Shown here piece after piece: positions 2,526 through 19,559 of a stretch of 30,068 nucleotides of DNA. This DNA is from a virus (taxonomy: Duplodnaviria > Heunggongvirae > Uroviricota > Caudoviricetes), in IMG/VR virus record IMGVR_UViG_2706794678_000007. One strand, 5' to 3'. The notes under the pieces were generated by a model, which was not told where the DNA came from, searched no databases, and worked only from the letters and a program-made list of their open reading frames with translations. A program made the position numbers and the translations under genes. Position 1 is the first letter of the stretch. Each line of letters opens with the position of its first letter.

Positions 2526-3527
2526 ATGGATATTCGCACACGAAAGACAAAATTTTTAGAGTCGTTAGATTCAACTGAAGTGATACGCAAAGCAGTAAGT
2601 CTCGCTATAGATTGCATTATTGATAATCATAATAGTAATGAAGATACCCCCTTAGTTATTACCAGCTATGATGATCTCTGTAGAATCCAGGTGCTAAATT
2701 ATGTACAGGAGTTTTGCGAAGCTGCATTCCCTGATATGGATGAATATTACTTTAGTCCTAACATACTTCGCATCAACGGCAAGACTAGTGAAGAAGCTTG
2801 TATTAACTTAATTAAACTCTTAAGAAGTACAAAAGGCATGCTATTCTGGTCCGATGCCCCATCGTGGTTCGCTAGCCTCCCCGACGGATTATTCCATGTT
2901 GTTAACATTGATCAAAAAATCGTTACTCGCGGCCTTAATAAGAAAAACTCTAAGCCGACAATAATCAATAAAGATTACAGTGTAGATACACTACTATCAG
3001 AGCTATTTTTGAATGGCGCACACATGGAGCAACCCAACGTACACAACGTTTCTGAGGGAAACATGAAGTTCTATGATGAATGCCATGCTGGATTAATCAG
3101 ACCAATACCCGCTCCAATAGGCGCGTCATACGATGAAGAGATCACAATTAATTCTCCAGATTGGCAAAAGCTCGCGTGTGTAGCTTTACGCCGCTATCAG
3201 TCGAAGGAATGTCATGACGGAATGCAATGGGATACAACCGATCATGGTTGGACTGATGTAATCGCGTATCCATTCGTCGAAGAAATACAATCAATGGATA
3301 ATAGTGGTTATCGACAATGTTTAGTTGGGCTGGTCACAATAAACAATTCAAATGCAAATTCTCCGTACCTATCTACCGTTTGGATACATCCATTTTATCG
3401 CAGGAGAGGGTTATTAAGTAAGTTATGGCCAAAATTACAAGAGTTATATGGAAGTAACTTCGAAATTGAGCGACCTAATGAAAATATGAAAGCATTTCTG
3501 AAAAGTGCGAAACACGCAGATTACTAA
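2526..3527 (+). CDS. hypothetical protein, C-terminal region resembling a GNAT acetyltransferase core (…VWIHPFYRRRGLLSKLW…)
   Basis: ATG at 2526, 15 nt after the previous stop (operon-like). AT-rich codon usage like the upstream gene. C-terminal P-x3-R-x2-G-L-L-x2-L resembles GNAT motif A; pattern recognition only, not verified. Confidence 0.55.
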   Translation: MDIRTRKTKFLESLDSTEVIRKAVSLAIDCIIDNHNSNEDTPLVITSYDDLCRIQVLNYVQEFCEAAFPDMDEYYFSPNILRINGKTSEEACINLIKLLRSTKGMLFWSDAPSWFASLPDGLFHVVNIDQKIVTRGLNKKNSKPTIINKDYSVDTLLSELFLNGAHMEQPNVHNVSEGNMKFYDECHAGLIRPIPAPIGASYDEEITINSPDWQKLACVALRRYQSKECHDGMQWDTTDHGWTDVIAYPFVEEIQSMDNSGYRQCLVGLVTINNSNANSPYLSTVWIHPFYRRRGLLSKLWPKLQELYGSNFEIERPNENMKAFLKSAKHADY

Positions 3528-3710
3528 TTTATGAATCAGTCTGTGGAGTTAGGGTTGGTGTGAACAAGTAGGGTAAGAGCCTCAACGTGATGCTATGCCG
3601 ACCTGCTCCCTGAGAATTCACACAGAAGGCTGCTAGCAATGTCTGCAGATCGCTCAAAGCGGACTAAAATGTTGGCTTGTTTCTGACTTAGAGCATTTAA
3701 GGAAGTGCTG

Positions 3711-3929
3711 GTGGTGACTGGTTGTTGTGTTCCATTTCTACAGAATAAAATCACAGAAACTATACCCAATAGTTGTATTGAATCACTGACGAGACAGCCT
3801 CATATTTATCAGGACTGGTGTGCGTCTAATACAGGGGGTTGTCGTGCTGGTTCTCAAATGTGCGCTGGCTATTGCGGCTGTAATGGCAATTTATTGTCTT
3901 GCTGTTGTTCTTATGGAGCGGCTTTCTGA
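3711..3929 (+). CDS. possible small cysteine-rich protein (11 Cys in about 72 aa); uncertain
   Basis: ORF-track 3705..3929. AAGGA at 3700-3704 with GTG at 3711 gives the best spacing. No recognised homology. Confidence 0.2.
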   Translation: MVTGCCVPFLQNKITETIPNSCIESLTRQPHIYQDWCASNTGGCRAGSQMCAGYCGCNGNLLSCCCSYGAAF

Positions 3930-4081
3930 TTGATTACATACTGGCTAGAAAAAAGGTGTTACCTTGGTTTATCTTTGTCCGGCAAGGTGCGCTCATTAAT
4001 CTTAAGTAAATTTATTGCTCAAGTATTCAGATTACTTCTTATGGTTGAAGTCTCCTGTCAATGTAGAACCAATATATTTAC

Positions 4082-4118
4082 AAAAATGAGACCCGTCGGG
4101 GATAGCCCTGCCGGGTCT
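4082..4118 (-). terminator. rho-independent terminator for the minus-strand yeaR-like gene
   Basis: Stem AGACCCG (4089-4095) / CGGGTCT (4112-4118); on the minus strand the hairpin is followed by a T-run (reverse complement of 4082-4088). Lies about 30 nt past the stop at 4148. Confidence 0.45.
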
Positions 4119-4147
4119 GACTGTTAAAGCATTTTTAATATGATCAT

Positions 4148-4486
4148 CTATTTTTTGGTGCTATAGACTTTTTCGCCCGAAAAGTCTGGAGCGACCCAAA
4201 AGTTAATATTAAACTGAGCATCATCGCTTAGTTCAACACGGTGCCAGTATTGTGGTGGGCTTGTTGCAAAAGCGCCAGCATTAATGACTACTTTTATCTC
4301 CGGTTCAGTAGCATTCTCATCAGTAAAACCATAATATGTTACAGTGCCTTCCATTACGCACAACTGCCCAAAAACACCTGCTGCTGTATTATGATGTGTT
4401 AATAACGCTGAAGGTACGTTCTCTTTTGTGAAGAACGGAGTTGAGCGTTTGATTACCCAATCTTTAGGAATTCTCTTGTGTGTCAT
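4148..4486 (-). CDS. DUF1971 family protein, YeaR-like
   Basis: Minus-strand ORF-track 4148..4510. Start trimmed to the ATG at 4486, which has SD GGAGGAGG (reverse complement of 4491-4498). Length about 112 aa and motifs (RSTPFF…, FNINFWVAP) resemble E. coli YeaR as I remember it. Confidence 0.75.
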   Translation of the reverse strand: MTHKRIPKDWVIKRSTPFFTKENVPSALLTHHNTAAGVFGQLCVMEGTVTYYGFTDENATEPEIKVVINAGAFATSPPQYWHRVELSDDAQFNINFWVAPDFSGEKVYSTKK

Positions 4487-4501
4487 AACCACCTCCTCCA
4501 A

Positions 4502-4524
4502 AACATGCATTAAAAATGCATCTT
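4502..4524 (-). promoter_or_regulatory. candidate NsrR operator (11-1-11 inverted repeat) in the yeaR-like promoter
   Basis: AACATGCATTA-A-AAATGCATCTT closely matches the NsrR consensus AAnATGCATTT-n-AAATGCATnTT. Sits 16-38 nt upstream of the start codon; a TTGACA -35 on the minus strand lies at 4536-4541. Confidence 0.5.
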
Positions 4525-5299
4525 TTGGAGGGTTATGTCAAGCTGTTATGAAACACATAATTGATATGTTGATTAGAGGAGAAGATAGAATAAATATGGT
4601 TGTTTTTCGTATAACTATTTGTTTTACTTTTAGTTTATGCATTCTGTGTGTTAGGAATAAGTTATTAAAGTTTAATCAAAAAATCTCGATGTAGTCCACA
4701 TAGATTACTGTTACTGAACCTTATTGTGTGTATTAGTTGTGTTCTGAAATTTCAGCTTAATTATTTATGATGTATTTTTTAACGATAAATATTTTCCCAG
4801 GATACCTTTACTGTGTATATAAATAAATTATATACGCATAAATAATGTAAAGGCGTCCTTTTAGATATATCTTATCAAATGTTAATGACTTGAGTGGGAA
4901 ATATGATTCCAGCAACTTATCATGTGGCTACTTTATAAAAATAATGCCCATATAAAACAACAAGCGAAAAGGATTACGGATAAAAAAGGAGCGAGATGTG
5001 CGAACTTGTTATTTTCCATGTTTAACCACCTTAAATAATTGATGATGACGGGATGATTGCATCTGTAATGCTTTTATTGAAATGTTATGATAAAAAAGAA
5101 CTTTTGCATAACATTAAAATGTAATTTATCTAATCGTTTTTAATAATAAGTGTCGTATTTCTATCCTTGTACCAGCTATTTGATATGTAGTGTTTGTTCA
5201 TGCTATGTGGGGCTTTACACCATAGCCAGTTTATTTATACTTTATTCGTCAGCCTGAACAACTGGCATCTGCTGCGCTGCGCCATCGAGAGATTGAGAA

Positions 5300-5899
5300 A
5301 TGGCGCATATACAACTGGTCAAACAAACCTCTTCTGGTTTACTTCTCCCGGCGACGCCGGAGAGTTGCGATTTTCTGCATCAAATCAAAATAGGTGAGTG
5401 GATACACGCAGACTTTAAGCGTGTGCGTAACTACGCATTCCACAAGCGTTTTTTCAAACTCCTGCAACTGGGATTCGATTACTGGACTCCGGTCGGTGGG
5501 GCGATCACGCCTCGCGAACGAGAACTGCTGTCTGGTTTCGTTGATTACCTGTGCGAATCAGTTGGTCGGGAACACACGCCAGCCCTGAGTGATGCCGCAG
5601 AGCAATACCTTAACACCGTTGCGACTCGTAGAACCCGGGATACGGCGTTGCTAAAGTCGTTTGAGGCTTTCCGCGAGTGGGTAACCATTCAGGCCGGATT
5701 TTACACCGAGCATATTTATCCGGACGGTAGCCGTGGGCGTCGGGCAAAATCCATCGCTTTTGCGAATATGGACGAAGTCGAGTTTCAGCAGGTTTATAAA
5801 TCTGTACTGAATGTGCTGTGGAACTGGATTCTGTTCCGTAAATTCTCCTCTCAGGAGGAAGTTGAAAATGTGGCCGCACAACTACTGGAGTTTGCGTAA
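5300..5899 (+). CDS. nin-region protein, DUF1367-like (YbcN-like)
   Basis: ORF 5300..5899, immediately upstream of the YbcO-like gene and Q, matching nin-region order in lambdoid prophages. Family assignment from memory. Confidence 0.65.
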   Translation: MAHIQLVKQTSSGLLLPATPESCDFLHQIKIGEWIHADFKRVRNYAFHKRFFKLLQLGFDYWTPVGGAITPRERELLSGFVDYLCESVGREHTPALSDAAEQYLNTVATRRTRDTALLKSFEAFREWVTIQAGFYTEHIYPDGSRGRRAKSIAFANMDEVEFQQVYKSVLNVLWNWILFRKFSSQEEVENVAAQLLEFA

Positions 5900-6189
5900 T
5901 GGTGAATTTACGTAAAGCGGCTAAAGGCCAGATGTGCCAGATCAGAATCCCTGGCTACTGCAATCACAATCCCGAAACCTCTGTGCTGGCGCATTACAGG
6001 CTGGCGGGGACGTGCGGAACAGCGACAAAACCACATGATATGCAGGCGGCGATAGCCTGTAGCTCATGCCACGATCTAATCGACGGGCGGGTAAAAACCA
6101 GCGATTACACCAAAGAAGAATTGCGCCTGATGCATGCTGAAGGGGTTTTTCGCACACAAGAAATCTGGAGAAAGAAAGGTCATTTATGA
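5899..6189 (+). CDS. DUF1364 family protein (YbcO-like, Cys-rich putative nuclease/zinc-binding)
   Basis: 96 aa, Cys-rich (CQIRIPGYCNH…CSSCHD). Stop of the previous gene overlaps its start. Same length and nin-region position as DLP12 YbcO. Confidence 0.7.
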   Translation: MVNLRKAAKGQMCQIRIPGYCNHNPETSVLAHYRLAGTCGTATKPHDMQAAIACSSCHDLIDGRVKTSDYTKEELRLMHAEGVFRTQEIWRKKGHL

Positions 6190-6728
6190 TTTACCCAACG
6201 AATACAGGAAAAAGCGGAGAACACCTTCGCCTCACCACGCTGGAAAGTGTCTGGATTCAGGGAAAACTACGTATGTGGGGGCGCTGGTCGTATATTGGCG
6301 GTGGCAGGTCAGGGAATATGTTCAATCAGTTGTTGGCATCCAAAAAACTGACGAAAACAGCCATTAATGAAGCCCTGCGCAGAATGAAAAAAGCGGGAAT
6401 AGAGAAAGCTGAGCTGGAAGCGTTTTTGCGAGAGATGATCAACGGCAAGCAAAAGAGCTGGCTGGCGCATTGTACTGATGCAGAGGCGTTATGTATTGAT
6501 CGAGTCATAAGTGAGGTGCTGGCAGAGCATCCAGGATTGATTTGCATTCTCCGGCAACGCTATGAAGGGCGGGGGATGACTAAGCGCAAAATGGCTGAAT
6601 TGCTAAATGATGCACACCCAGAGTGGTGTTTTAGCACATGCGAAAAACGGATTGCTAATTGGTTAGCTGTTGCTGAGTATGCCCTATATATTCCCATGCG
6701 TGAATCATTTGCTGAGAAAATGGCTTGA
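6186..6728 (+). CDS. Q: late-gene antiterminator Q (Phage_antitermQ-like)
   Basis: Sits after nin genes and before the lysis cassette. W-G-R-W motif (LRMWGRWSY) resembles the QuuD-family signature. Overlaps the upstream gene by 4 nt. Confidence 0.6.
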   Translation: MIYPTNTGKSGEHLRLTTLESVWIQGKLRMWGRWSYIGGGRSGNMFNQLLASKKLTKTAINEALRRMKKAGIEKAELEAFLREMINGKQKSWLAHCTDAEALCIDRVISEVLAEHPGLICILRQRYEGRGMTKRKMAELLNDAHPEWCFSTCEKRIANWLAVAEYALYIPMRESFAEKMA

Positions 6729-6745
6729 TTTCTTACGTATAAACT
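6705..6745 (+). promoter_or_regulatory. candidate late promoter PR' region (-10-like TATAAA at 6738-6743); -35 not confidently placed
   Basis: Just 3' of Q, about 75-95 nt upstream of the tR'-like terminator, as expected for a lambdoid late leader. Confidence 0.3.
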
Positions 6746-6814
6746 GCTTCAATTTTGCTATGCTTCGCAAAGCTGTATCGCGAGGCGGATTGCAGACATG
6801 GACATCGTAAAAAA

Positions 6815-6836
6815 ACCGCTTAATGCGGTTTTTTTA
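6815..6836 (+). terminator. rho-independent terminator (tR'-like) downstream of Q
   Basis: AACCGC-TTAAT-GCGGTT hairpin followed by TTTTTTT (6830-6836), with an A-run before it. Confidence 0.6.
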
Positions 6837-7156
6837 CGTCAGGAAAGCAGGGGAGAATGCTGCTAGTTGGGCAACTGGTCTTTCTGCTCCAAATTATAAC
6901 AGAGACCAGTTATAGTTTCGGTGCTGTGTTTTTTTTACAATATTGTGATAACACATTGCTGGCGGGAGTTTTGATATTTCTTGGCAGGGGCTGATGATGC
7001 GTTATCCTGATGTCGTCAACTCATATAAAATGAGATGAGAGATCATTGCAGGGTGGTTTGTAATTCGCTGTTTAGCGGGACAATATGTTGTCTGATACAA
7101 GACACCCGACGCCTCAGATTACTATAATAAAGACGAAGCATCCTTTGTATTGACCA

Positions 7157-7185
7157 ACCGCCTGTTTAGGCGGTTCTTTTTGGGC
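7157..7185 (+). terminator. rho-independent terminator-like hairpin in the Q-S intergenic region
   Basis: AACCGCCT-GTTT-AGGCGGTT (8-bp stem) followed by CTTTTT. A TATAAT at 7124-7129 lies about 30 nt upstream. Confidence 0.45.
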
Positions 7186-7737
7186 TGGTTTATTGTATGC
7201 CAAATGATTATTAAAAAGGTTGTGTTAATAACAAGATCCGAAATAATATGCCTGCATATTTTTATCTTGCTTATATTCTGCATATTGTGCATAGCAGGCT
7301 CATCCCTGCAATCAAAACTGTATGATGAGTATTTTTTGTTTTCCTTTTTTCCAGTCATCTGATGATGACCTGCTTCTTTTTAATCCGGATCGACATCAGT
7401 TTTTTAAGATAATTCCTGCGAGTTATATGCATAAATGCCACAAACTCCGCATTTTATGTGGTTGGGAGTTGCCGGGCGCGCAGTGAGTTTGCTAAGAAAA
7501 CTCCTGCATGGTGAATCCCCCTGTGCGGTGGGGTGATACCATTAACCTTTTCTGTCGCCGACAGGTATCACGAACATTTTGTTCACCGGGAGGCACCCGG
7601 CACCATGCACTTCAATAGATTCTCTCCACATTATGGATATTCTTTCAGAATATCCCACGCAGACTTTGTGTAAATGTTAACAAATGTGCGTTTTATTTGA
7701 TCTGATTCGCTGTTTGAGCGTCCAAAACAACGGTATA

Positions 7738-7743
7738 TATAAT
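7738..7743 (+). promoter_or_regulatory. candidate -10 (TATAAT) for the first TolA-like lipoprotein gene
   Basis: TATAAT about 30 nt upstream of ATG 7773; RBS GAGGAA directly upstream of the start. Weak -35. Confidence 0.3.
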
Positions 7744-7772
7744 CCTTTACTATATGACATATGTGAGGAAAA

Positions 7773-8201
7773 ATGGGTTTTCGTAGCGCATCAATTCTTA
7801 CGTTGATTATTAGTGGGATTATTATCGGGTGCACTGATGCTGTATCGACAAATTATCATGACCGTACATCATATTACTCCGATAAAGCAATAGAGACACA
7901 GTATGTGAGTTCATCTGAACGTACTTCTGATGTTAGTGAGGATATCCGTCTGTATGCCCATCAAATCAAGAGCGCCATCGAAAAACAGTTCGGGGATGCG
8001 AGTAAGTATTCAGGAAAAGAGTGTACACTGAGAATGCATATGGCCCCGAATGGCCTTCTACTGGAGGTTAAAAGAGAAAGTGGAGACCTCGATTTATGTC
8101 GTGAAGCGATGAATGCGATAAAGAATGCTGATATACCTGCCCCCCCTTCGCCGGAAGTATATAAAGTATTTCAAAATGGGGTGCTGGATTTTAAACCCTG
8201 A
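7773..8201 (+). CDS. lipoprotein with TolA C-terminal (domain III)-like domain
   Basis: Signal peptide plus lipobox (IIIGC). C-terminal …YAHQIKSAIEKQFGDASKYSGKECTLRMHMAPNGLLLEVK…PPSPEVYKVFQNGVLDFKP closely parallels E. coli TolA domain III (…CTLRIKLAPDG…PPSQAVYEVFKNAPLDFKP, from memory). Confidence 0.8.
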   Translation: MGFRSASILTLIISGIIIGCTDAVSTNYHDRTSYYSDKAIETQYVSSSERTSDVSEDIRLYAHQIKSAIEKQFGDASKYSGKECTLRMHMAPNGLLLEVKRESGDLDLCREAMNAIKNADIPAPPSPEVYKVFQNGVLDFKP

Positions 8202-8351
8202 TATTTATTGTTTTGTAATAAACGGTTTCGGCTTAGGTTTGTTCTGACACAGCTACGGCACTGAGCTAAATTTAGCGGATAGTCAGCTCTGAGCCAGTGG
8301 CGGACGTAACAACTACTATTGCTGAGATTTTAATGGATTGAGGAGCAAGAA

Positions 8352-8747
8352 GTGGGATTAAAGAAAATCGTTATGTTGACTTTTTGGGTCGGTTTTGTTG
8401 CGGGATGCACACCTTTACACCCTTCAGATTGCCACAAAACTACTGCTACAGGTAGTTGCAGTTCAGGACGCTGGGATGATCAGGATGAATGGGGGGCGCA
8501 AGCGCGGGGAATCAGAGCTGCAATTAATGCCAAACTTGATGAGCCGCATAACTGGAAAGGGAAAAAATGCAGGTTGCATATGGAATTCTCTCAGGATGGC
8601 ACGGCGTTAAAAATATCTACCAGTAACGGTGATAAAGCCTATTGCGAAGCGATAAAGTCCGCAGCTCATAAAGCCAAATTTCCGGCCTTCAACAATCCGG
8701 AAGTCTACAGAGATTTTCAGAAATCTGGCTTTGACATGCGAGGTTAG
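8352..8747 (+). CDS. lipoprotein, paralog of the upstream gene, TolA domain III-like
   Basis: GTG at 8352 with GAGGAG at 8340-8345 (6-nt spacer). Lipobox (VAGC). C-terminal KKCRLHMEFSQDGTALKIS…NNPEVYRDFQKSGFDM aligns with the upstream protein and with the TolA III pattern. Confidence 0.75.
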   Translation: MGLKKIVMLTFWVGFVAGCTPLHPSDCHKTTATGSCSSGRWDDQDEWGAQARGIRAAINAKLDEPHNWKGKKCRLHMEFSQDGTALKISTSNGDKAYCEAIKSAAHKAKFPAFNNPEVYRDFQKSGFDMRG

Positions 8748-8872
8748 CTCTTCAATTACTATATCTCATTCATAGCAAACTGACAGATTTGATGATGTTC
8801 TATATACGAAACCTGTGATGTCAAGTCTGAGCTAATACAAATAAACATAATATCAGAGAAATACATTTTATT

Positions 8873-8896
8873 AGCTCGCTACGGCGAGCTTTTTAT
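8873..8896 (+). terminator. rho-independent terminator after the lipoprotein pair
   Basis: AGCTCGC-TACG-GCGAGCT hairpin followed by TTTTTAT. Confidence 0.5.
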
Positions 8897-8998
8897 ATTG
8901 CATCGTCTCCAGCATATATATCAATTAAGGCTCTGATTGATGTGTCTGAAAGCCTACACATAATAACTATGCCATCCGTTCCGTGCGGAGGTGAGGCT

Positions 8999-9214
8999 AT
9001 GAAATCCATGGACAAAATTTCAACAGGCATTGCCTACGGCACCTCCGCAGGCAGTGCTGGCTACTGGTTTTTACAGTTGCTCGATAGAGTAACTCCGTCA
9101 CAGTGGGCTGCAATCGGTGTGCTGGGTAGTCTGGTATTTGGCCTGCTGACGTACCTGACAAACCTTTATTTCAAGATTAAAGAAGATAAGCGCAAGGCTG
9201 CGAGAGGTGAATAA
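8999..9214 (+). CDS. S: class II holin, phage 21 S-type pinholin (dual-start MKSM motif)
   Basis: 71 aa ([29 protein letters not shown]…[11 protein letters not shown]), two TMDs and a charged C-terminus. Start trimmed from ORF-track 8942; GGAGG upstream. Overlaps the endolysin start by 1 nt. Confidence 0.9.
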
Positions 9215-9711
9215 TGCCTCCATCATTACGAAAAGTCGTTGCTGCTGCTATTGGTGGCGGAGCAATTGCTATAGCATCAGTGTTAATCACTGGCCCAAGT
9301 GGTAACGATGGTCTGGAAGGTGTCAGCTACATACCATACAAAGATATTGTTGGTGTATGGACTGTATGTCACGGGCATACAGGAAAAGACATCATGCTCG
9401 GTAAAACGTATACCAAAGCAGAATGCAAAACACTCTTGAATAAAGACCTTGCCACTGTCGCCAGACAAATTAACCCGTACATCAAAGTCGATATACCGGA
9501 AACAACGCGCGGCGCTCTTTACTCGTTCGTTTACAACGTGGGCGCTGGCAATTTCAGAACATCGACGCTTCTTCGCAAAATAAACCAGGGCTATATCAAA
9601 GGCGCATGTGATCAGCTACGTCGCTGGACATATGCTGGCGGTAAGCAATGGAAAGGTCTCATGACTCGTCGTGAGATTGAGCGTGAAGTCTGTTTGTGGG
9701 GGCAACAATGA
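9214..9711 (+). CDS. R: SAR endolysin (phage 21 R-type lysozyme)
   Basis: 165 aa. N-terminal hydrophobic Gly/Ala-rich SAR segment ([20 protein letters not shown]), then an E-x8-D-x5-T lysozyme motif. Confidence 0.9.
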
Positions 9712-10172
9712 GCAGAGTAACCGCGATTATCTCCGCTCTGGTTATCTGCATCATCGTCTGCCTGTCATGGGCTGTTAATCATTACCGTGATAACGCCATT
9801 ACCTACAAAGCCCAGCGCGACAAAAATGCCAGAGAACTGAAGCTGGCGAACGCGGCAATTACTGACATGCAGCAGAGACAGCGTGATGTTAATGCACTCG
9901 ATGCTAAATACACGAAGGAGTTAGCTGATGCGAAAGCTGAAAATGATGCTCTGCGTGATGATGTTGCCGCTGGTCGTCGTCGGTTGCACATCAAAGCAGT
10001 CTGTCAGTCAGTGCGTGAAGCCACCACCGCCTCCGGCGTGGATAATGCAGCCTCCCCCCGACTGGCAGACACCGCTGAACGGGATTATTTCACCCTCCGG
10101 GAACGACTGGTAATGATGCAGGCCCAACTTGAAGGTGCTCAGCAATACATAACCGAGCAGTGTTTAAAGTAA
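9708..10172 (+). CDS. Rz: i-spanin Rz
   Basis: ATG 9708 overlaps the endolysin stop. N-terminal TMD then coiled-coil-like charged region; embedded Rz1 in the +1 frame. Confidence 0.85.
9928..10113 (+). CDS. Rz1: o-spanin Rz1 (lipoprotein, proline-rich), embedded in Rz
   Basis: Lipobox VVGC and PPPPP tract; fully nested out of frame within Rz, the classic arrangement. Confidence 0.8.
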
Positions 10173-10309
10173 AATCTTAACTACAATATGATTCATTTTG
10201 ATGATTGTTTCATAAGGAACAGTGAAGTAAGATCTAAGAGGAGTTAAATTTTATACAGTATAATCATAATATTGCAGCAAGGTGGTTATAATTGAAAGAA
10301 TATTTAGAT

Positions 10310-11767
10310 ATGAATACATCTCATGTAAGAGTTGTTACTCATATGTGTGGGTTCCTGGTTTGGCTCTATAGTCTTTCAATGTTGCCACCAATGGTTGTAG
10401 CATTGTTTTATAAAGAAAAAAGCCTGTTCGTTTTCTTTATAACTTTCGTTATATTTTTTTGCATTGGTGGCGGAGCGTGGTATACAACTAAGAAATCTGG
10501 CATTCAATTACGTACCCGTGATGGGTTTATTATAATTGTAATGTTTTGGATTTTGTTTTCTGTTATTAGTGCATTCCCTTTATGGATTGACTCAGAACTT
10601 AATTTAACGTTCATTGATGCTCTGTTTGAAGGGGTTTCTGGAATAACAACAACAGGAGCAACTGTAATTGATGATGTTAGTTCATTACCTCGGGCATATT
10701 TGTACTATCGGTCACAGTTAAATTTTATAGGTGGTTTAGGAGTTATTGTTCTGGCGGTTGCAGTATTGCCATTATTGGGTATTGGTGGTGCAAAGCTTTA
10801 TCAGTCAGAAATGCCGGGGCCATTTAAGGATGACAAACTCACTCCCCGCCTGGCCGATACGTCACGGACACTGTGGATAACTTATTCTTTATTAGGTATT
10901 GCTTGTATTGTCTGTTATAGACTTGCAGGAATGCCTTTGTTTGATGCTATTTGTCACGGGATTTCCACAGTTTCGCTTGGTGGTTTCTCAACTCATAGCG
11001 AGAGTATCGGATATTTTAATAACTATTTGGTTGAGCTGGTGGCTGGTTCTTTTTCCCTGCTATCGGCTTTCAACTTCACTCTTTGGTATATTGTTATTAG
11101 CAGAAAAACGATAAAACCTTTAATCAGAGATATTGAACTTCGTTTCTTTCTGTTAATAGCCTTAGGGGTGATCATTGTTACCTCTTTCCAGGTCTGGCAT
11201 ATAGGTATGTATGACTTGCATGGAAGTTTTATTCATTCGTTTTTTCTTGCCAGCTCCATGCTCACTGATAATGGTTTAGCTACGCAGGATTATGCAAACT
11301 GGCCCACGCACACGATAGTGTTTTTGCTGTTGTCAAGTTTCTTTGGGGGATGTATAGGTTCAACCTGTGGTGGAATTAAGTCACTTCGATTTCTTATACT
11401 TTTCAAACAAAGCAAACACGAGATAAATCAGCTTTCTCATCCCAGAGCGTTGTTGAGTGTAAATGTAGGAGGGAAGATAGTTACAGATCGTGTAATGAGG
11501 TCTGTATGGAGTTTCTTTTTTCTTTATACTCTCTTCACGGTGTTTTTTATACTGGTGTTAAATGGTATGGGATATGATTTTCTTACATCATTTGCAACAG
11601 TGGCTGCATGTATTAATAATATGGGATTAGGTTTTGGGGCTACTGCATCGTCATTCGGAGTGCTTAATGACATTGCAAAATATTTAATGTGCATAGCTAT
11701 GATTCTTGGTCGCCTTGAAATTTATCCTGTTATTATATTGTTTTCAGGTTTTTTTTGGCGCTCCTAA
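10310..11767 (+). CDS. trkG: Trk-system K+ uptake protein TrkG (TrkH/TrkG family)
   Basis: 485-aa polytopic membrane protein with repeated glycine-containing selectivity-filter-like segments (TTTGATV, LGIGGAK, STVSLGGFST, NNMGLGFG). Recognised as TrkG, known to be prophage (Rac)-encoded in E. coli K-12. Start at ATG 10310 (MNTSH…); the ORF-track TTG at 10292 has a better SD and is a possible alternative. Confidence 0.93.
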   Translation: MNTSHVRVVTHMCGFLVWLYSLSMLPPMVVALFYKEKSLFVFFITFVIFFCIGGGAWYTTKKSGIQLRTRDGFIIIVMFWILFSVISAFPLWIDSELNLTFIDALFEGVSGITTTGATVIDDVSSLPRAYLYYRSQLNFIGGLGVIVLAVAVLPLLGIGGAKLYQSEMPGPFKDDKLTPRLADTSRTLWITYSLLGIACIVCYRLAGMPLFDAICHGISTVSLGGFSTHSESIGYFNNYLVELVAGSFSLLSAFNFTLWYIVISRKTIKPLIRDIELRFFLLIALGVIIVTSFQVWHIGMYDLHGSFIHSFFLASSMLTDNGLATQDYANWPTHTIVFLLLSSFFGGCIGSTCGGIKSLRFLILFKQSKHEINQLSHPRALLSVNVGGKIVTDRVMRSVWSFFFLYTLFTVFFILVLNGMGYDFLTSFATVAACINNMGLGFGATASSFGVLNDIAKYLMCIAMILGRLEIYPVIILFSGFFWRS

Positions 11768-11853
11768 TATATGGCTGATTTATAATTGTGAGTTTAATAT
11801 TATGTTGACTCACTCATTGATCCAATACCTAACTTTACCAGCAACACCTCCGC

Positions 11854-11888
11854 CCCCAGTAGCACTGGCTGCTGGGGTGCGTTTTATT
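11854..11888 (+). terminator. terminator-like hairpin after trkG
   Basis: CCCCAGTAGC-ACTG-GCTGCTGGGG (one mismatch) followed by a T-rich tail. Confidence 0.4.
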
Positions 11889-11904
11889 CATAAAGCAAGG
11901 CTGT

Positions 11905-12693
11905 ATGAGCGAGAAATTAAAGATAGTCTATCGCCCATTACAAGAATTGTCACCGTATGCGCACAACGCCAGGACGCACAGTACTGAGCAGGTGGCACAA
12001 CTGGTAGAAAGTATTAAGCAATTCGGCTGGACTAATCCGGTGCTGATTGACGAAAAGGGCGAAATTATTGCGGGTCACGGTCGTGTTATGGCGGCTGAAA
12101 TGCTCAAAATGGATTCTGTTCCGGTCATTGTTCTGTCTGGCCTGACGGATGAGCAGAAAAAGGCGTACCGCCTGGCAGATAATCGCCTGCCGATGAATGC
12201 TGGCTGGGATGAAGATCTGTTGCGGATGGAGCTGTCGGACCTAATCAATGCTGATTTTGATGTCTCCCTGACAGGCTTCATCCCGGCAGAAATTGATGAA
12301 CTGTTGACGGATGTTTTGCCCGGTACAGGAAATGAGGAGGAGCCGTATACGACGAAAATTGATACGCCTGTTTATGAGCCGTCAGGCGGTAAACCGGATA
12401 TCAGTGAACTGTACGACGATACGAAAACTCAGGAGCTGATCAGCCGGATACGTTCGGCGTCCCTTGATCCTGATATTGAGAAATTCCTCCTGTGTGCAGC
12501 AGAACGTCACACGGTGTTTAATTTCAGCAGAATTGCGGACTATTACGCTCATGCCCCCGCTGAAATTCAGTGCCTTTTCGAGGAGTCGGCGCTGGTGATC
12601 ATTGATTATCAGCAGGCTATTGAAAATGGATTTGTCCGAATGACGCAGCGCATGGTGGAGATCATGCATGGCGGGGAGGAGGAATATGCGTGA
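11905..12693 (+). CDS. ParB-like nuclease domain protein (YnaK-like, full length)
   Basis: N-terminal ParB/Srx-type motif (…IIAGHGRVMAA…). Sits between trkG and the terminase genes, as in Rac. Confidence 0.8.
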   Translation: MSEKLKIVYRPLQELSPYAHNARTHSTEQVAQLVESIKQFGWTNPVLIDEKGEIIAGHGRVMAAEMLKMDSVPVIVLSGLTDEQKKAYRLADNRLPMNAGWDEDLLRMELSDLINADFDVSLTGFIPAEIDELLTDVLPGTGNEEEPYTTKIDTPVYEPSGGKPDISELYDDTKTQELISRIRSASLDPDIEKFLLCAAERHTVFNFSRIADYYAHAPAEIQCLFEESALVIIDYQQAIENGFVRMTQRMVEIMHGGEEEYA

Positions 12694-13618
12694 TGATTTT
12701 TGCGCCTTTATTCTGACTCACGGGCGACCGGACAAAGTTCTGACTTACCGGACGTTGCGTCGTGCTGGCTATACCGGGAAAATTTTTATCGTTGTTGATG
12801 ATGAAGATAAGACACGGCATCAGTACATGGCTGAATTTGGTGAACAGGTGCTGGTATTTTCCAAAGCCGATATTGCTAGTCGTTTTGACGAAGCCGATAA
12901 TTTTAGTGACCGCCGCTCAATTTTTTACGCCCGTAATGCCTGTTTCGACCAGGCAAAACTGGTCGGGTGTAAATACTTCATTCAGCTCGATGATGATTAT
13001 CACGAGTTCCAGTTTCGGGTGGATCGCAACTATGACCAGGCCTATTTCCCGATAAGGAAACTGGATGAGATCCTTTCTGAAATGCTTGCGTACTACGAAT
13101 CAATACCTGCTCTTTCCATCGCTATGTCGCAGGGCGGGGATTTTCTTGGTGACAATGGCGGCCATGCTTCGTGGGTGAAACGCAAGGCAATGAACAGCTT
13201 TATCTGTTCGGTTGATCGACCGTTCTCATTCATGGGGCGCATTAACGAGGATGTGAATACGTACACGAATCTCGGTCGCTGTGGTGAATTGTTTATGACG
13301 ATCGGTGCTGTCCAGTTAGGGCAGAAACAGACGCAGAAAAACAGCGGCGGAATGACCGAGCTGTATCTGGATTCCGGAACCTACGTTAAAAGTTTTTACT
13401 CCGTCATGTATGCGCCGTCGTGCGTAAAAATCTCACTTATGGGTGCCAGTCATAAACGCATTCACCATCAGGTCACCTGGAACAACGCTGCAGTAAAAAT
13501 CCTTCACGAAAAATACAGGAAGAAGACACCCTGCATATCAATGGGGGTGACAAATGATTCCGTATTCGAAAGTCGAGTCTCTGGCAGCGTGCCGGATGAC
13601 TGCACAACAAATCGCTGA
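12686..13618 (+). CDS. hypothetical protein, possibly GT-A-like (DxD-type motif FIQLDDDY)
   Basis: ATG 12686 with GGAGG at 12676-12680, overlapping the ParB-like gene stop; ORF-track 12668..13618. Rossmann-like N-terminus and LDDD motif suggest a nucleotide-sugar transferase fold. Inference only. Confidence 0.55.
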   Translation: MRDDFCAFILTHGRPDKVLTYRTLRRAGYTGKIFIVVDDEDKTRHQYMAEFGEQVLVFSKADIASRFDEADNFSDRRSIFYARNACFDQAKLVGCKYFIQLDDDYHEFQFRVDRNYDQAYFPIRKLDEILSEMLAYYESIPALSIAMSQGGDFLGDNGGHASWVKRKAMNSFICSVDRPFSFMGRINEDVNTYTNLGRCGELFMTIGAVQLGQKQTQKNSGGMTELYLDSGTYVKSFYSVMYAPSCVKISLMGASHKRIHHQVTWNNAAVKILHEKYRKKTPCISMGVTNDSVFESRVSGSVPDDCTTNR

Positions 13619-13805
13619 CGTTCTGGATGTTGATCTGAACCGACTGAAAGAAAATCGGGAAGCAATGACAGATTTTTATGCGGCCATCCGTAAGGGCAGA
13701 GCGAAAGGTGAAGCCGAGTTACGAGCGGCATTGTTTAAGCTTGCCAGAAAAGGGGATGCCTTTGCTCTGCGCGAACTACTCAGGGTGGATAAAAATCAGG
13801 ACTAA
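13554..13805 (+). CDS. small HTH-like protein (hypothetical); start uncertain (13554 or 13596)
   Basis: 83-aa ORF overlapping the 3' end of the upstream gene; helix-turn-helix-like segment TAQQIADVLDVD; immediately precedes terS. Confidence 0.4.
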   Translation: MIPYSKVESLAACRMTAQQIADVLDVDLNRLKENREAMTDFYAAIRKGRAKGEAELRAALFKLARKGDAFALRELLRVDKNQD

Positions 13806-13808
13806 CTG

Positions 13809-14903
13809 ATGAGCAGACCGGACTGGGGGGCGTTGCAGCAGGAGTATATTGCTGAATACACCCGCTCCGGTATATCTCCGGTGGCATGGTGTGAAGCAAG
13901 GGGACTGAATTACGCAACAGCCCGTCGTTACATCAAAAAAACTCCGAAAAATGCGCAGACAGAAATGTGCAAAACTGCGCAAAAAAGTGCGCAGAAAAAA
14001 TCTGCGCAGACTGCACAAAAGCGGAACGAAAAATCTCAGGAAAAAAAGCCAGTATTCGATGCGGGCCTGAATGAGGGCGACGCGGAGGAATTTTCGTTCT
14101 GTCCCGATGAATTCGGCATTTCTGACCAGCAGGCTAAGTTTGCGATGCTTGTTGCTCAGGGTAAAAAGCCGACAGAGGCGTACCGACTAGCCGGTTATGA
14201 GGGGCAAGGTGCGACAGCTAACAGCAACGCCAGTCGTATGCTTAGAAATGCCAGGGTTTTTCGCGCTATCAGCTACTTCCGCAATCAGTACCAGAAACGC
14301 TATACCGCAGACCTGGATTTACTAGTGAGTCAGTTGATGGCTATTGTCCTGGCCGACCCCAATCAGCTTGCACAATTTCGCCGTGTTAACTGCCGTTATT
14401 GCTGGGGCGAGAATCATCTCTACCAGTGGCGCGATATAGCAGAATTCGACAAGGCAGCGGCGCAGGCTTCCAGAGATGGCAAACCCGAACCGGAATATGG
14501 AGGCCTCGGCTTTGTTGATAACGCCATACCCAATCCGGACTGCCCGAAGTGCTGCGGTGAGGGAACGGGACAGCTTTATATGGCTGATACCACTCTGCTT
14601 GATGGGGATGCGCGGCAATTATATGCAGGGGCAAAATTCGGAAAATTCGGCGTTGAGATCCTGCTGGAGGATAAGGCTGCCGCCCGGCGTGAATTGTTGC
14701 GTTTGTTTTCTGCTGGCGGGGCTTTATGTGCAGATAAGCGGCTACGGGAACTGGAAATTGAACGGCGCAGAATGGAAAACCAGAAGCTGCGCAAAGAGAT
14801 CGAAACGGTGGAAGATAATGAACATCCCCAGCCTGTGGCGATCAATATTAATGTGGTTGATGCCAGAGTAAGGAGTGATGAAGATGATCTCTCCGACGCT
14901 TAA
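13809..14903 (+). CDS. terS: terminase small subunit
   Basis: Directly upstream of and overlapping terL; N-terminal HTH-like region, Lys/Gln-rich repetitive linker, Cys cluster (CRYCWG…CPKCCGEG), C-terminal coiled-coil. Confidence 0.75.
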   Translation: MSRPDWGALQQEYIAEYTRSGISPVAWCEARGLNYATARRYIKKTPKNAQTEMCKTAQKSAQKKSAQTAQKRNEKSQEKKPVFDAGLNEGDAEEFSFCPDEFGISDQQAKFAMLVAQGKKPTEAYRLAGYEGQGATANSNASRMLRNARVFRAISYFRNQYQKRYTADLDLLVSQLMAIVLADPNQLAQFRRVNCRYCWGENHLYQWRDIAEFDKAAAQASRDGKPEPEYGGLGFVDNAIPNPDCPKCCGEGTGQLYMADTTLLDGDARQLYAGAKFGKFGVEILLEDKAAARRELLRLFSAGGALCADKRLRELEIERRRMENQKLRKEIETVEDNEHPQPVAININVVDARVRSDEDDLSDA

Positions 14904-16185
14904 TGTGCCTCAGGCGCGATTTCTTTCAATGCCCCATAAATTTAAAGCCTATATTGCTGGTTTTGGCTCGGGCAAAACATGGGTTGGGTGTGGCGGCATA
15001 TGCAAGGGGATTTGGGAGCATCCAGGTATAAATCAGGGATATTTTGCGCCAACGTATCCCCAAATTCGCGATATTTTTTACCCTACAGTGGAAGAAGTTG
15101 CTGCTGACTGGGGATTGAACGTAAAAATTAATGAGGGAAATAAAGAGGTTCACTTTTATTACGGACGCCAGTATCGGGGAACCACTATCTGCAGATCGAT
15201 GGAGAAGCCACAAACGATCGTCGGTTTCAAAATTGGTAATGCGTTGGTGGATGAACTGGACATTTTGCCGAAGGAAAAAGCCAGAACGGCGTGGCGCAAG
15301 ATAATTGCACGTATGCGTTATAAGATTGATGGACTTCGCAACGGTATTGACGTTACAACCACGCCGGAAGGATTCAAATTTGTCTACGAGCAGTTTGTTA
15401 AAGCCGTGCGTGAAAAAACAGAGCTGGCCTCACTGTATGGTCTGGTGCAGGCATCTACTTTCGATAATGAAAAGAACCTGCCAGCAGATTACATTCCTTC
15501 GCTTCTTGAATCATACCCTCCAGAGCTGATTAAAGCCTATCTTCGAGGACAGTTTACTAACCTGACAAGTGGTACTGTTTACCATCAGTTTGACCGGAAA
15601 CTGAATAATTGCGAAGAAGTGGAGCAGCCAGGGGAGCCGATTTATATTGGGATGGATTTTAACGTTGGAAAGATGGCGGGAATCGTCCATGTGCTGCGTT
15701 TGGGGCTTCCATGTGCGGTAACTGAAATCATCAATGCCTACGATACGCCGGATATGATCCGCATCATTAAAGAACGCTTCTGGCTGTATGATGGGAATGA
15801 TTACCGGAAAGTGAGGGAAATTTATATTTATCCAGATGCTTCCGGGGATTCCAGAAAATCAAGTAACGCAAGTACGACGGATATAGCCCAGCTTAAGCAG
15901 GCTGGTTTTAACGTTGTGGTGAACAGCTCGAACCCGCCAGTAAAAGATCGCGTTAACTCAATGAATGCAATGTTCTGCAATGCCAATGGTGAGCGTCGCT
16001 ATAAAGTTAATGTGAAGCGTTGCCCGTTATATGCCGAATCTCTGGAGCAACAGGTCTGGGATGAGAAGGGGGAGCCTGATAAAAAATCTGGCAATGATCA
16101 CCCGAATGATGCCGGAGGTTATTTCATCGTTAAGCAATTCCCTATTGTCAAACCGACCGGAAGAGTCACATCACTTCGGATTTAA
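14884..16185 (+). CDS. terL: terminase large subunit
   Basis: Walker A-like motif GFGSGKT near the N-terminus; size and position before portal. Start ATG 14884 chosen for SD AAGGAG (14870-14875) spacing; the ORF-track GTG 14875 is too close to the SD. Confidence 0.9.
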   Translation: MISPTLNVPQARFLSMPHKFKAYIAGFGSGKTWVGCGGICKGIWEHPGINQGYFAPTYPQIRDIFYPTVEEVAADWGLNVKINEGNKEVHFYYGRQYRGTTICRSMEKPQTIVGFKIGNALVDELDILPKEKARTAWRKIIARMRYKIDGLRNGIDVTTTPEGFKFVYEQFVKAVREKTELASLYGLVQASTFDNEKNLPADYIPSLLESYPPELIKAYLRGQFTNLTSGTVYHQFDRKLNNCEEVEQPGEPIYIGMDFNVGKMAGIVHVLRLGLPCAVTEIINAYDTPDMIRIIKERFWLYDGNDYRKVREIYIYPDASGDSRKSSNASTTDIAQLKQAGFNVVVNSSNPPVKDRVNSMNAMFCNANGERRYKVNVKRCPLYAESLEQQVWDEKGEPDKKSGNDHPNDAGGYFIVKQFPIVKPTGRVTSLRI

Positions 16186-16187
16186 TT

Positions 16188-17594
16188 ATGGCTGATATAT
16201 CAACACCCAACCTCGACTATAACGATATGCTGGAGGCGTGGGATATTAACGACGCACTGATGGGCGGTACGCTTGAAATGCGCAGGCAGGGGGAAAATTA
16301 TCTCCCAAAATGGCCTAACGAAGATGAAGACGCTTATAAAAAACGCCTGTCTGTGGCTACGCTACTTCCTGTGTATGAAGAAAGCATCAAGCAAAATATT
16401 GGGCGCATATTTGCAGAGCCGACAGTATTGAGTGAGGAAACGCCGGCAAAAATCAGGGAATATGCAGAAAATATCGACATGGAGGGGAGCCGACTGGATG
16501 TGTGGGCGCAGCAATTTTTCAGCCTCGCATTTCAGTATGGTGTGGCACATGCGCTGGTGGACTATCCACGAACGGATATGAAAGAGATTCGGACAAAAGC
16601 CGATGAAAACGCGACCGGTGGTCGTCCGTACGTTACGATGCTGAATCCACGCCAGGTTATTGGATGGAAATCGAAAGTTGAAAAAGGGAAAGTTGTTCTC
16701 ACTGATTTGCGTATAAAAGAGGTCATCATTATTGATGGTGATGATTTCGGGCAGAAGAAGGTGGAGCAGATCCGCCATATTATGCCCCGTCGAGTTGAAA
16801 TTTATCGACGTAGCGAAGGCACTAATGGCGAATCTGTCTGGACGCTTCATGAGTCATGGAATACCAGCCGTGATGATATTCCTCTGGTAACACTGTACAC
16901 GAAGAAAACAGGATTTATGCGTGGTACACCGCCATTGCTTAATCTTGGCTTGCTGAATATCAAGCACTGGCAAAGCCAGAGCGAGCAGGACAATATTCTT
17001 CATGTTGCCCGCGTTCCATTGCTGGTGGCCTACGGGCTGGACAGGAATGAAGAACTGACGGTTGGTGCATCCACCGCTACGATTTTTGAGGACAGAACAA
17101 AAAATGGCCTCGAATATGTTGAACATAGTGGCGCAGCGATAGAATCTGGCGAAACATCACTTGAGAAGCTGGAAAATCAGATGCGTCATGCCGGCGCTAA
17201 ACTTCTGCGTGCTGAAAATACATCCACCAAATCTGTTGATCAGACTAATGAAGAGCGAATGCAGGAAAACTCGCCGCTTTATACAATGGCGAACTCCCTC
17301 GAAGATGCCCTCGATAATATTCTCCAGATAATGGCGGAATGGATCGGAGAGAGTTGCGGTGGCAATGTGGATGTGCGCACTGAACTGGATGTATCTGCCC
17401 AGGTGTTTGACTCATCCTCCGCGCTGGCTGTTCAGTCATTGCGTCAGGGCGGTGATATACGTCAGATTGATGCGGTTCGGGTGTTGCAGGCGTTGAAATT
17501 TATCGATCAGGATTCCCGTCCAGAGGAAGTGATCGATGAATTAAAAAATCAGAGTGTAATGCTGATGGAAATCAATGATGCAAACCGTGAATGA
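16188..17594 (+). CDS. portal protein
   Basis: 468 aa, immediately after terL and before the head morphogenesis gene. Confidence 0.8.
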   Translation: MADISTPNLDYNDMLEAWDINDALMGGTLEMRRQGENYLPKWPNEDEDAYKKRLSVATLLPVYEESIKQNIGRIFAEPTVLSEETPAKIREYAENIDMEGSRLDVWAQQFFSLAFQYGVAHALVDYPRTDMKEIRTKADENATGGRPYVTMLNPRQVIGWKSKVEKGKVVLTDLRIKEVIIIDGDDFGQKKVEQIRHIMPRRVEIYRRSEGTNGESVWTLHESWNTSRDDIPLVTLYTKKTGFMRGTPPLLNLGLLNIKHWQSQSEQDNILHVARVPLLVAYGLDRNEELTVGASTATIFEDRTKNGLEYVEHSGAAIESGETSLEKLENQMRHAGAKLLRAENTSTKSVDQTNEERMQENSPLYTMANSLEDALDNILQIMAEWIGESCGGNVDVRTELDVSAQVFDSSSALAVQSLRQGGDIRQIDAVRVLQALKFIDQDSRPEEVIDELKNQSVMLMEINDANRE

Positions 17595-18690
17595 ACGGCT
17601 GCGTGATGAATCAATTGCTCATGCAGTCTGGATATCCCGCTATAGCACTGGCGTGGCTGCCAGAATGGTGAAAATACTGAATGACAGCGATGCGGAACTT
17701 ACTGCTCGCCTGCTGATAGCACTGGACAGCCTCGATCCAGGTAGTTTTACCGTTAAGCGCCTGGAGTCACTTCTGGCGAGCGTCAGAGAGGTTAACCGCA
17801 CTGCTATTAACAGCATGTTTACCAGTCTCTCCGGAGAGCTGAACGAGCTGGCAATTTATGAGGCTGGTTATCAGTTAAGTCTGTTTGATTCTATGCTACC
17901 TGATTTTGTTGCTGATGTTCACCCTCTGGTTGGTATCTCTCCTGATGCACTTTATGCCGCTGCAATGGCGCGACCATTCCAGGGACGACTGCTCAGTGAG
18001 TGGGCCTCAGATCTTGAGGCGGATCGGCTCAGACGCATAACAAATACAGTGCGTCAGGGTTTTTTGCTGGGGGATACCAATGAGCAGATCGCAAGAAAAA
18101 TTCGGGGACATGTCAGTAAGGGATTTCAGGATGGTGCATTGCAGATGAGCCGGGCTAATGCGGCCAGCATTGCAAAAACAGCGGTTGGACATCTTGCTGC
18201 TACTGCCCGTGAGAGTTTTGCCAGCGCGAATAATGATTTGATTAAGGGTAAGCAATGGTTATCAACGCTTGATAATCGTACTACGCCACAATGTCGAATC
18301 AGGGATCGCCTCAAATATACGCTGAATAATAAACCTGTAGGTCACAGCGTGCCTTATTTGCAGGGGCCGGGAAAAATTCATTTCTGCTGCCGCTCAACGG
18401 AAACGTTCATTCTGAAATCAGCGAAGGAACTGGGTATTGATGTTCGCGATATTTCCCCGGCTGAGCGGGCCAGCATGGATGGCGTGGTGGCCGGAGATAC
18501 AACCTACAGGGAATGGTTTTTGCGTCAGCCTTACACCAGACAAAAACAGATTGTGGGGGAAAGCCGAGCAAAGCTGATTCGGGATGGTGGTATGTCGCCA
18601 GATGAATTTTACACCGATAAAGGCGAATGGCTGACGCTGAAGCAGCTCCGTGAGCGTGATGCACAGGTATTCAGAAAAGCAGGGATTTAA
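17575..18690 (+). CDS. head morphogenesis protein (MuF/SPP1 gp7-like minor head protein)
   Basis: 371 aa following portal, overlapping the portal 3' end; characteristic position and composition. Confidence 0.7.
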   Translation: MMQTVNERLRDESIAHAVWISRYSTGVAARMVKILNDSDAELTARLLIALDSLDPGSFTVKRLESLLASVREVNRTAINSMFTSLSGELNELAIYEAGYQLSLFDSMLPDFVADVHPLVGISPDALYAAAMARPFQGRLLSEWASDLEADRLRRITNTVRQGFLLGDTNEQIARKIRGHVSKGFQDGALQMSRANAASIAKTAVGHLAATARESFASANNDLIKGKQWLSTLDNRTTPQCRIRDRLKYTLNNKPVGHSVPYLQGPGKIHFCCRSTETFILKSAKELGIDVRDISPAERASMDGVVAGDTTYREWFLRQPYTRQKQIVGESRAKLIRDGGMSPDEFYTDKGEWLTLKQLRERDAQVFRKAGI

Positions 18691-18710
18691 ATAAATCATT
18701 TATTACAACA

Positions 18711-18735
18711 GGCTACCTTCGGGTGGCCTTTTTTA
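18711..18735 (+). terminator. terminator-like hairpin (UUCG tetraloop) between head morphogenesis and scaffold genes
   Basis: GGCTACC-TTCG-GGTGGCC (one G·U wobble) followed by TTTTTT. Confidence 0.4.
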
Positions 18736-18794
18736 TTGCTGCGATCCGGATGGTGAGCAGCGTAACTGTCGGAAGACTTAAACCAGGTACTAAT

Positions 18795-19559
18795 ATGAAA
18801 CTGAAAACGGTCGAGATTAACGGAAAACAATACGCAGAAATTGATACTGCTGGCCTGCCAGTTTATGTGCACGACGATGGTAAAGAAATTGGCTTCGATG
18901 CACCGCTGGCGACAAAAAAAATTACAGAGCTTAATGGCGAGGCAAAAAATCATCGCCTGGCTAAAGAAGCTGCAGAGGAAAAACTGGCTAAGTTTGCCGC
19001 TATCGAAGACCCGAAGAAGGCGATCGAGGCACTGGAAATGCTGTCAAAAATCGACCAGAAAAAGCTGCTCGATGCGGGACAGGTTGACCAGGTTAAGGCA
19101 GAAATTACGAAAAATTTTCAGCAGCAATTAGATGAAGAAAAGCAACGCTCTCAGATGCTGGAGAAGCAGCTTTACGATTCTATGATTGGCGGTAGTTTTG
19201 CGGGTTCAAAATATATTGCCGATAAAATTGCGATCCCGGCAGATTTATTACAAGCCCGCTTCGGGCAGGCATTCAAAGTGGAAGAAGGGAGGATCGTTGC
19301 TTATGACGCTTCCGGCAACAAAATTTATTCCCGCGCGAAGCCTGGCGAACTGGCGCAGTTTGATGAGGCGCTGGAGTTCCTTGTCGAAAATTACCCTCAG
19401 AAAGACTACATCCTGAAAGCCAGTGGCAACAATGGCGGCGGCTCCCGTCCGACACAGCATGATATTGGTCAGAAAACGATGAAACGCTCTGCTTTTGATG
19501 CACTGGATGTTGCAGGTAAGCAAAACGCATTGAAAGACGGTATCACAATCGTTGATTAA
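18795..19559 (+). CDS. scaffolding protein (putative)
   Basis: Alpha-helical, charged protein (many E/K/Q) directly before the major capsid gene. Start at MKLKTVEING (ATG 18795); the ORF-track start at 18723 overlaps the terminator. Confidence 0.65.
   Translation: MKLKTVEINGKQYAEIDTAGLPVYVHDDGKEIGFDAPLATKKITELNGEAKNHRLAKEAAEEKLAKFAAIEDPKKAIEALEMLSKIDQKKLLDAGQVDQVKAEITKNFQQQLDEEKQRSQMLEKQLYDSMIGGSFAGSKYIADKIAIPADLLQARFGQAFKVEEGRIVAYDASGNKIYSRAKPGELAQFDEALEFLVENYPQKDYILKASGNNGGGSRPTQHDIGQKTMKRSAFDALDVAGKQNALKDGITIVD

Follow-up and report, generated by a model that had tools for sequence, protein, structure and literature searches.

Between the lysis cassette and the packaging genes of a lambdoid prophage of the Escherichia coli Rac lineage lies trkG, a gene for a K+ transporter of the TrkH family. 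The copy described here belongs to a 30,068-bp stretch of DNA (IMG/VR record IMGVR_UViG_2706794678_000007; hereafter the window), in which the lysis genes, trkG and the packaging genes all occupy the + strand. Upstream of trkG stand genes for a class II, EssD-like holin (8999–9214; Pfam Phage_holin_2_1, 2e-35; essD in the RefSeq annotation of strain NCTC10444), an RrrD-like lysozyme acting as endolysin (9214–9711; Phage_lysozyme, 1.6e-44) and a full-length Rz inner-membrane spanin (9708–10172; Phage_lysis, 1.4e-52), within which the Rz1 outer-membrane lipoprotein spanin is embedded (9928–10113; Pfam Rz1, 2e-19; the equivalent of K-12 rzoR, annotated at the homologous place). An AT-rich leader (10173–10309) follows, and the trkG reading frame then runs unbroken from a TTG at 10292 or an ATG at 10310 to the stop at 11767, with a 3' spacer (11768–11834) behind it. 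Downstream come a full-length gene for a 262-residue protein with a ParB/Srx N-terminal domain (11905–12693; ParB_N, 8.7e-07), a gene of the TET-associated glycosyltransferase (TAGT) family (12686–13618; PF20691, 4e-34) and the terminase genes TerS (13809–14903) and TerL (14884–16185; Pfam Terminase_2, Terminase_6N and Terminase_6C). The position between lysis and packaging genes, proposed in the initial annotation, is thus borne out. We consider it very probable that the DNA from 10173 to about 11834 is a trkG moron of the Rac lineage set at the lysis/packaging junction of a lambdoid late operon, and that the prophage carrying it is much less deleted than Rac of K-12.

The identity of the product, which the initial annotation had wished to see confirmed by alignment, is not in doubt. 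The protein matches the Pfam TrkH family (PF02386) over residues 40–483 (1e-144; 483 bits against a cutoff of 27) and exceeds the cutoff of the NCBIfam TrkH-subfamily model TIGR00933 (415 against 331 bits). Its score of 452 bits against the NCBIfam TrkH equivalog NF008020 is below the cutoff of 866, which identifies the gene as the TrkG paralogue rather than TrkH. In all, 483 of 485 residues are those of K-12 TrkG (b1363), the two differences being S330N and C458Y relative to K-12. The translation aligns end to end with the solved TrkH of Vibrio parahaemolyticus (4J9U; E 2e-121) and contains the P-loop motifs ITTTGA, SLGGFS, TDNGL and NNMGLG, which we take to occupy the selectivity-filter positions of TrkH (four pore-loop repeats, with one filter glycine each). 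Judged by its sequence, the allele in the window is a K+ transporter subunit of the TrkH/TrkG family, within the Trk/Ktr/HKT superfamily, and is essentially K-12 TrkG, which works with the host protein TrkA. K-12 TrkG mediates Na+-dependent K+ uptake (PMC9898762).

Translation of the gene probably does not start at the annotated ATG (10310), which would give the 485 aa of K-12 b1363. A Shine-Dalgarno sequence, AAGGTGG (10279–10285), stands 6 nt ahead of the in-frame TTG at 10292, and the 491-aa homologues of Pectobacterium and Enterobacter begin at the equivalent upstream TTG or GTG, also with a Shine-Dalgarno sequence, and have ATT or TTA at the position of the K-12 ATG. The gene call of the draft assembly itself is 10292–11767. 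Initiation at the TTG, giving a product of 491 aa, is a small by-product of this work that may be useful to others.

The cassette differs in composition from its surroundings. The leader has a GC content of 25.5% and trkG one of 38.0%, against 51.4% for Rz, 49.6% for the ParB-like gene and 47–51% for the flanking genes, and the break is sharp and located at the Rz stop codon. An AT-rich region upstream of trkG had been noted from the start; it contains two TATAAT boxes (10259–10264 and 10287–10292) besides the Shine-Dalgarno sequence and the in-frame TTG. At the other end, a GC-rich hairpin resembling an intrinsic terminator, with its U-tract, occupies 11851–11888 on the + strand, 17 nt upstream of the ParB-like gene. 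It consists of a 10-bp GC-rich stem (11854–11877, extendable to 11851–11881) and a loop of 4 nt, and GUUUUAUU follows it. Its folding energy is -25.2 kcal/mol (z = -5.2), and none of 200 shuffled sequences was as stable; the end at 11890 given for the unit in the initial annotation is just beyond it. Direct or inverted repeats bracketing the trkG cassette were looked for and none was found, an Rfam scan of 9600–12400 gave no match at E <= 1, and a tRNA scan of the window found none.

The limits of the inserted DNA can be read from relatives that possess or lack the gene. E. coli EC11 contains a prophage whose lysis cassette is of another kind and is followed by a 98-aa open reading frame (ORF) and, with no trkG between, by the ParB/TAGT/TerS/TerL module seen here; the two sequences become homologous from window position 11835. 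Escherichia albertii NBRC 107761 has a copy of trkG (93% protein and 84% DNA identity) whose homology spans window positions 10130–11771, and the homology of a chromosomal trkG homologue of Escherichia fergusonii also stops at 11771. The right edge is therefore bracketed by 11771, from the trkG copies, and 11835, from EC11, so that the trkG-specific DNA extends from 10173 to about 11834. The E. albertii copy, which is probably an old prophage remnant, retains the last 43 nt of Rz, and the link between Rz and trkG must accordingly predate the E. coli copies. This copy (5819–7462 of the locus examined) has another chromosomal location, between copD and rsmF, and genes for an NleF-like effector and a metallophosphatase adjoin it.

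The nearest homologues outside Rac, at 70–79% identity, are those of E. fergusonii, Pectobacterium and Enterobacter, where the gene occupies unrelated, non-phage chromosomal loci. The GC content of these homologues is broadly in keeping with that of their flanks, at 42% versus 43–45% in E. fergusonii and 57% versus 58% in Enterobacter; in Pectobacterium it is 43% versus 50–51%. The spread of the TrkG clade over the Enterobacterales suggests that a low-GC member of it was captured by a phage. The proposal that trkG is a moron is thus supported by its foreign composition, by the trkG-less module of EC11 and by chromosomal homologues in unrelated contexts.

Comparison with the Rac prophage of K-12 (MG1655, b1345–b1375) shows how much of the backbone has been lost there. 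The order of genes in K-12 is rzpR' (a pseudogene)-rzoR-trkG-ynaK-ydaY-ynaA, and only three blocks align with the window, in the same order: positions 1–605 (ydaW; 95.0% identity), 9728–12158 (the Rz remnant, trkG and the 5' third of the ParB-like gene; 99.0%) and 23716–25475 (ydaY and the 5' part of the tape-measure gene; 99.9%). K-12 consequently lacks window positions 606–9727 (9.1 kb), with nin-like genes, the Q-like antiterminator gene, ORFs with a TolA domain, the holin and endolysin genes and the 5' end of Rz, as well as positions 12159–23715 (11.6 kb), which take in the 3' portion of the ParB-like gene together with the genes for terminase, portal, head, neck and tail tube. In K-12, rzpR is a 5'-truncated remnant of Rz (homology from window position 9728) and ynaK a truncated remnant of the ParB-like gene (homology to 12158); both are stumps of genes that are complete here. 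The neighbourhood of trkG and Rz/Rz1 remnants in K-12, mentioned in the initial annotation, was found as described, and the two large losses in K-12 make the prophage of the window a far less deleted relative of Rac, as had been suspected. Variation of this kind is not new: the size of Rac differs among strains, and trkG is one of its conserved genes (PMC5700373).

A prophage of NCTC10444 (NZ_LR134092.1) gives an idea of what the complete element may look like. It is 99.9% identical to window positions 1–28690, with the same gene order including trkG, and differs there by 24 substitutions and one indel; the gpK/gpI segment is more diverged (97.8%). The prophage spans ttcA-intR-xisR-recET...tfaR, and all its late genes are intact coding sequences. 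It thus possesses the IntR/XisR integration module at ttcA and the recET-kilR-sieB early region, both of which fall outside the window. The late genes visible in the window have ORFs of the same lengths, and no frameshift or stop was seen in them. Two apparent lesions relative to NCTC10444 were examined and rejected. A seeming 151-bp deletion at gpL/gpK is a run of 130 N, and the 1-nt indel at window position 4499, considered as a late-gene frameshift, sits at the 5' edge of a DUF1971 gene. NCTC10444 has a sitABCD iron/manganese transporter operon (45106–48555 of the region examined) between tfaR and uspF, where K-12 has pinR-ynaE-ttcC'.

Full-sized Rac-like prophages are mentioned, with reference to Jobling 2016, in an earlier article (PMC5917428), and KingRac, an active Rac-like prophage of 46.8 kb inserted at ttcA, produces particles and gives lysogens in the mouse gut (PMC6731689). 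Several database entries labelled as phages also carry trkG (vB_EcoS-...R.. records, Salmonella phage SPF_0923). We did not use them as evidence for virions: they hold host flanks (abgT...ttcA or sitABCD-uspF-ompN) and are prophage regions delimited in silico rather than virion genomes. The vB_EcoS records stem from an in silico study of prophages in clinical isolates.

The arrangement is common. Of 5426 complete E. coli genomes, 1551 contain the trkG cassette, and 1516 records are at least 99% identical. A search for the trkG-ynaK junction gave some match in 1596 genomes, and in 1446 of these the junction is unbroken. Coverage of the 3.5-kb lysis-trkG-ynaK stretch reaches 80% or more in 1007 genomes, and 666 complete genomes have 80% or more of the 25-kb late region. 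Records labelled as plasmids account for fifteen of the 1558 places of the cassette; one example is NZ_CP022155.1 (145 kb). The almost invariably intact junction, together with the failure to find an empty site described below, indicates that trkG is essentially fixed as cargo in the Rac lineage. The arrangement is also already known, and ordinary: RefSeq names these genes in hundreds of E. coli genomes. Since it is both common and annotated, its importance is low, and the finding has little weight beyond bookkeeping. Within these bounds it indicates that trkG entered E. coli as the cargo of a complete lambdoid phage, in line with the literature on trkG as horizontally acquired DNA damped by H-NS, and it defines the 9.1-kb and 11.6-kb blocks that K-12 Rac has lost.

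Expression of the gene in K-12 bears on its role. There, transcript levels of trkG are similar to those of trkH, with partial repression by H-NS (PMC9898762). Since K-12 expresses trkG although it has lost the Q gene and the late-promoter region, transcription must begin near the gene; by analogy, the AT-rich leader in the window probably holds a weak promoter damped by H-NS. We propose that in a lysogen trkG would be transcribed from this promoter of its own and that the transcripts would end at the hairpin (11851–11881). After induction, RNA polymerase modified by Q would pass trkG and the hairpin without stopping and go on to transcribe the packaging genes, as happens in other late operons of lambdoid phages. 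The benefit would be one of lysogenic conversion, the host gaining an additional route of K+ uptake.

Several observations weigh against this interpretation or narrow it. Among the 5426 complete E. coli genomes, none has an empty Rz-ynaK site (350 nt of the 3' end of Rz and 350 nt of the 5' end of ynaK within about 850 bp), so that the act of insertion is undocumented. EC11, the only trkG-less comparator, came to light solely through a query with the trkG/ynaK junction; its ParB-like gene shows about 90% identity at the 5' end, and its lysis cassette is another. A scan for sigma-70-like promoters returned six sites against 5.9 expected by chance, none of which stands out. The hairpin lies inside the DNA shared with EC11, whose version of it is weaker and homologous in part, with an identical U-tract. 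Being on the backbone side of the cassette edge, it is not demonstrably a terminator of trkG's own; of the terminator-like hairpin at 11854–11888 ascribed to trkG in the initial annotation, the structure stands and the ownership does not, although the hairpin can stop trkG transcripts all the same. Finally, the window is the entire draft contig CWTT01000042.1 (GCA_001254315.1), and both its ends are contig ends inside the prophage: it starts in a ydaW-like gene, stops at the start of gpJ and contains no int/attachment site (att), immunity, replication or tail-fibre genes. A scaffold gap of 130 N (28691–28820) covers the 3' end of gpL and the 5' end of gpK, where the homologous stretch of NCTC10444 measures 281 nt. 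Decay is also seen among close relatives, since O78 strain 3 has an insertion of IS2 and a deletion that starts in the portal gene and reaches into that of the tail tube, and further relatives have insertion sequence (IS) insertions.

These last points allow a reading in which the copy described here is itself defective, a cryptic Rac at an earlier stage of decay whose lesions lie outside the contig (in int/xis/att, immunity, replication or tail-fibre genes) or within the gpL/gpK gap. With the contig ending inside the prophage, 130 N standing in place of 281 nt at the gpL/gpK junction, and IS2, a portal-to-tail-tube deletion and other IS insertions in its relatives, such a state is quite possible, though we would stop short of calling it probable: every late gene that can be seen has the length of its NCTC10444 counterpart without frameshift or stop, the 99.9%-identical prophage of NCTC10444 keeps intR, xisR and ttcA, and the Rac-like phage KingRac, inserted at ttcA, is active (PMC6731689). 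A different origin for trkG, as ancestral host DNA picked up by aberrant excision rather than as an inserted moron, or a low GC content arising by drift within the phage, could draw on the chromosomal location of TrkG-clade genes in many Enterobacterales. We find it extremely improbable in view of the sharp composition break at the Rz stop codon and of EC11, which has the same packaging module without trkG. Aberrant excision in particular is rejected because trkG is surrounded by late-operon genes and lies a long way from att (ttcA/intR are about 24 kb upstream in NCTC10444).

The function of trkG in the phage cycle could also be seen otherwise. It might be mainly a late-operon gene serving the lytic cycle, transcribed along with the holin, endolysin and spanin genes from the Q-dependent late promoter, with an altered K+/Na+ flux or membrane potential sustaining late synthesis or tuning the timing of lysis and with expression in the lysogen being incidental. 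Its place on the same strand within the late operon, directly behind Rz/Rz1, would suit such a role, as would the lack of a promoter above chance, the nearly invariant Rz-trkG-ParB linkage (junction intact in 1446 of 1596 matching genomes, no empty site) and the age of the link shown by the 43 nt of Rz in E. albertii. We nevertheless hold this role to be unlikely. In K-12, trkG is intact and expressed like trkH despite the loss of Q, of the late-promoter region and of most late genes (PMC9898762); the gene is kept in many decayed Rac remnants (the cassette in 1551 genomes, most of the late region in only 666), which fits selection at the level of the host; and no experiment points to a lytic role. 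That TrkG is a functional member of the late operon, made together with the holin after induction, its Na+-coupled K+ uptake maintaining K+ or shifting the membrane potential, appears to us very unlikely; if true, late protein synthesis or the time of holin triggering could be affected. A moron expressed in the lysogen from a promoter in its leader remains our preferred interpretation of trkG.

The rest of the window conforms to the layout of a lambdoid late region. A gene for a Q-like late antiterminator (6186–6728, + strand; Pfam DUF1133, 2.5e-107; Phage_antitermQ, 8.6e-06) heads the late operon and is absent from K-12 Rac. Beyond TerL, unbroken ORFs with PHROGs matches fill the + strand from 16188 to 28690, namely the portal, head-morphogenesis, scaffold-like, major capsid, Ad1, Hc1, Neck1, tail terminator, tail tube, tail chaperone (ydaY), tape measure, gpM-like and the 5' part of gpL-like genes, with gpK- and gpI-like genes after the gap. 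Two ORFs with a TolA C-terminal domain (PF06519) are located between the Q-like and holin genes (7773–8201, 2e-23; 8352–8747, 1e-14). They occupy the slot in which Stx phages carry stx. This looks like a second site for cargo, and its genes might influence the Tol-dependent uptake of colicins or filamentous phages. At the replication/nin junction, a low-GC (35–40%) pair of genes (1488–3527; about 320–340 aa and 333 aa) gave no confident family: HEPN_RES_NTD1 and GNAT matches were below their cutoffs, and PADLOC returned nothing confident for the pair (1548–3527 in that search). In vB_EcoS-683R6 the same slot is filled by other genes (a kinase, an FtsH-like protein and an S8 peptidase), and it looks like a variable, possibly defence-related hotspot.

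The ParB-like and glycosyltransferase genes deserve a separate comment. The pair is also found at the left end of the Lactobacillus phages phiLdb, c5 and phi jlb1, and homologues of the ParB-like protein in Lactobacillus phages span 98% of its length. Its N-terminal part resembles the N-terminus of the PADLOC type II methyltransferase model. Standing ahead of the terminase genes, the ParB-TAGT pair may be a DNA-modification module, and its recognition is a further small by-product of possible use. The PGAP label ‘partial ynaK’ on the full 262-aa gene looks like an annotation artefact.

Among known systems, the product of the gene can be compared with the TrkH proteins of E. coli and V. parahaemolyticus, whose structures have been solved (3PJZ, 4J9U) and with which it shares family and length. 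It is, however, only about 41% identical to enterobacterial TrkH and belongs to a separate TrkG clade found across the Enterobacterales. A close counterpart of the prophage is K-12 Rac, whose ydaW, ydaY and tape-measure remnants are 95–99.9% identical to the window. In K-12 the tape-measure gene is truncated after window position 25475, whereas the prophage described here has full Rz and ParB-like genes and, up to the end of the contig, lacks none of the packaging, head and tail genes.

The concept of the moron was defined for the comparison of phages HK97 and HK022, and lambdoid examples include lom and bor of lambda and stx of the Stx phages. Like these, trkG is a single extra gene on the same strand between late modules, of deviant GC content, absent from a relative and followed by a terminator-like hairpin. 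It is unlike them in that its promoter is not recognisable from sequence and its hairpin is common to the trkG-less relative. Its cargo also sets it apart, being a housekeeping-type ion transporter rather than a virulence or exclusion factor.

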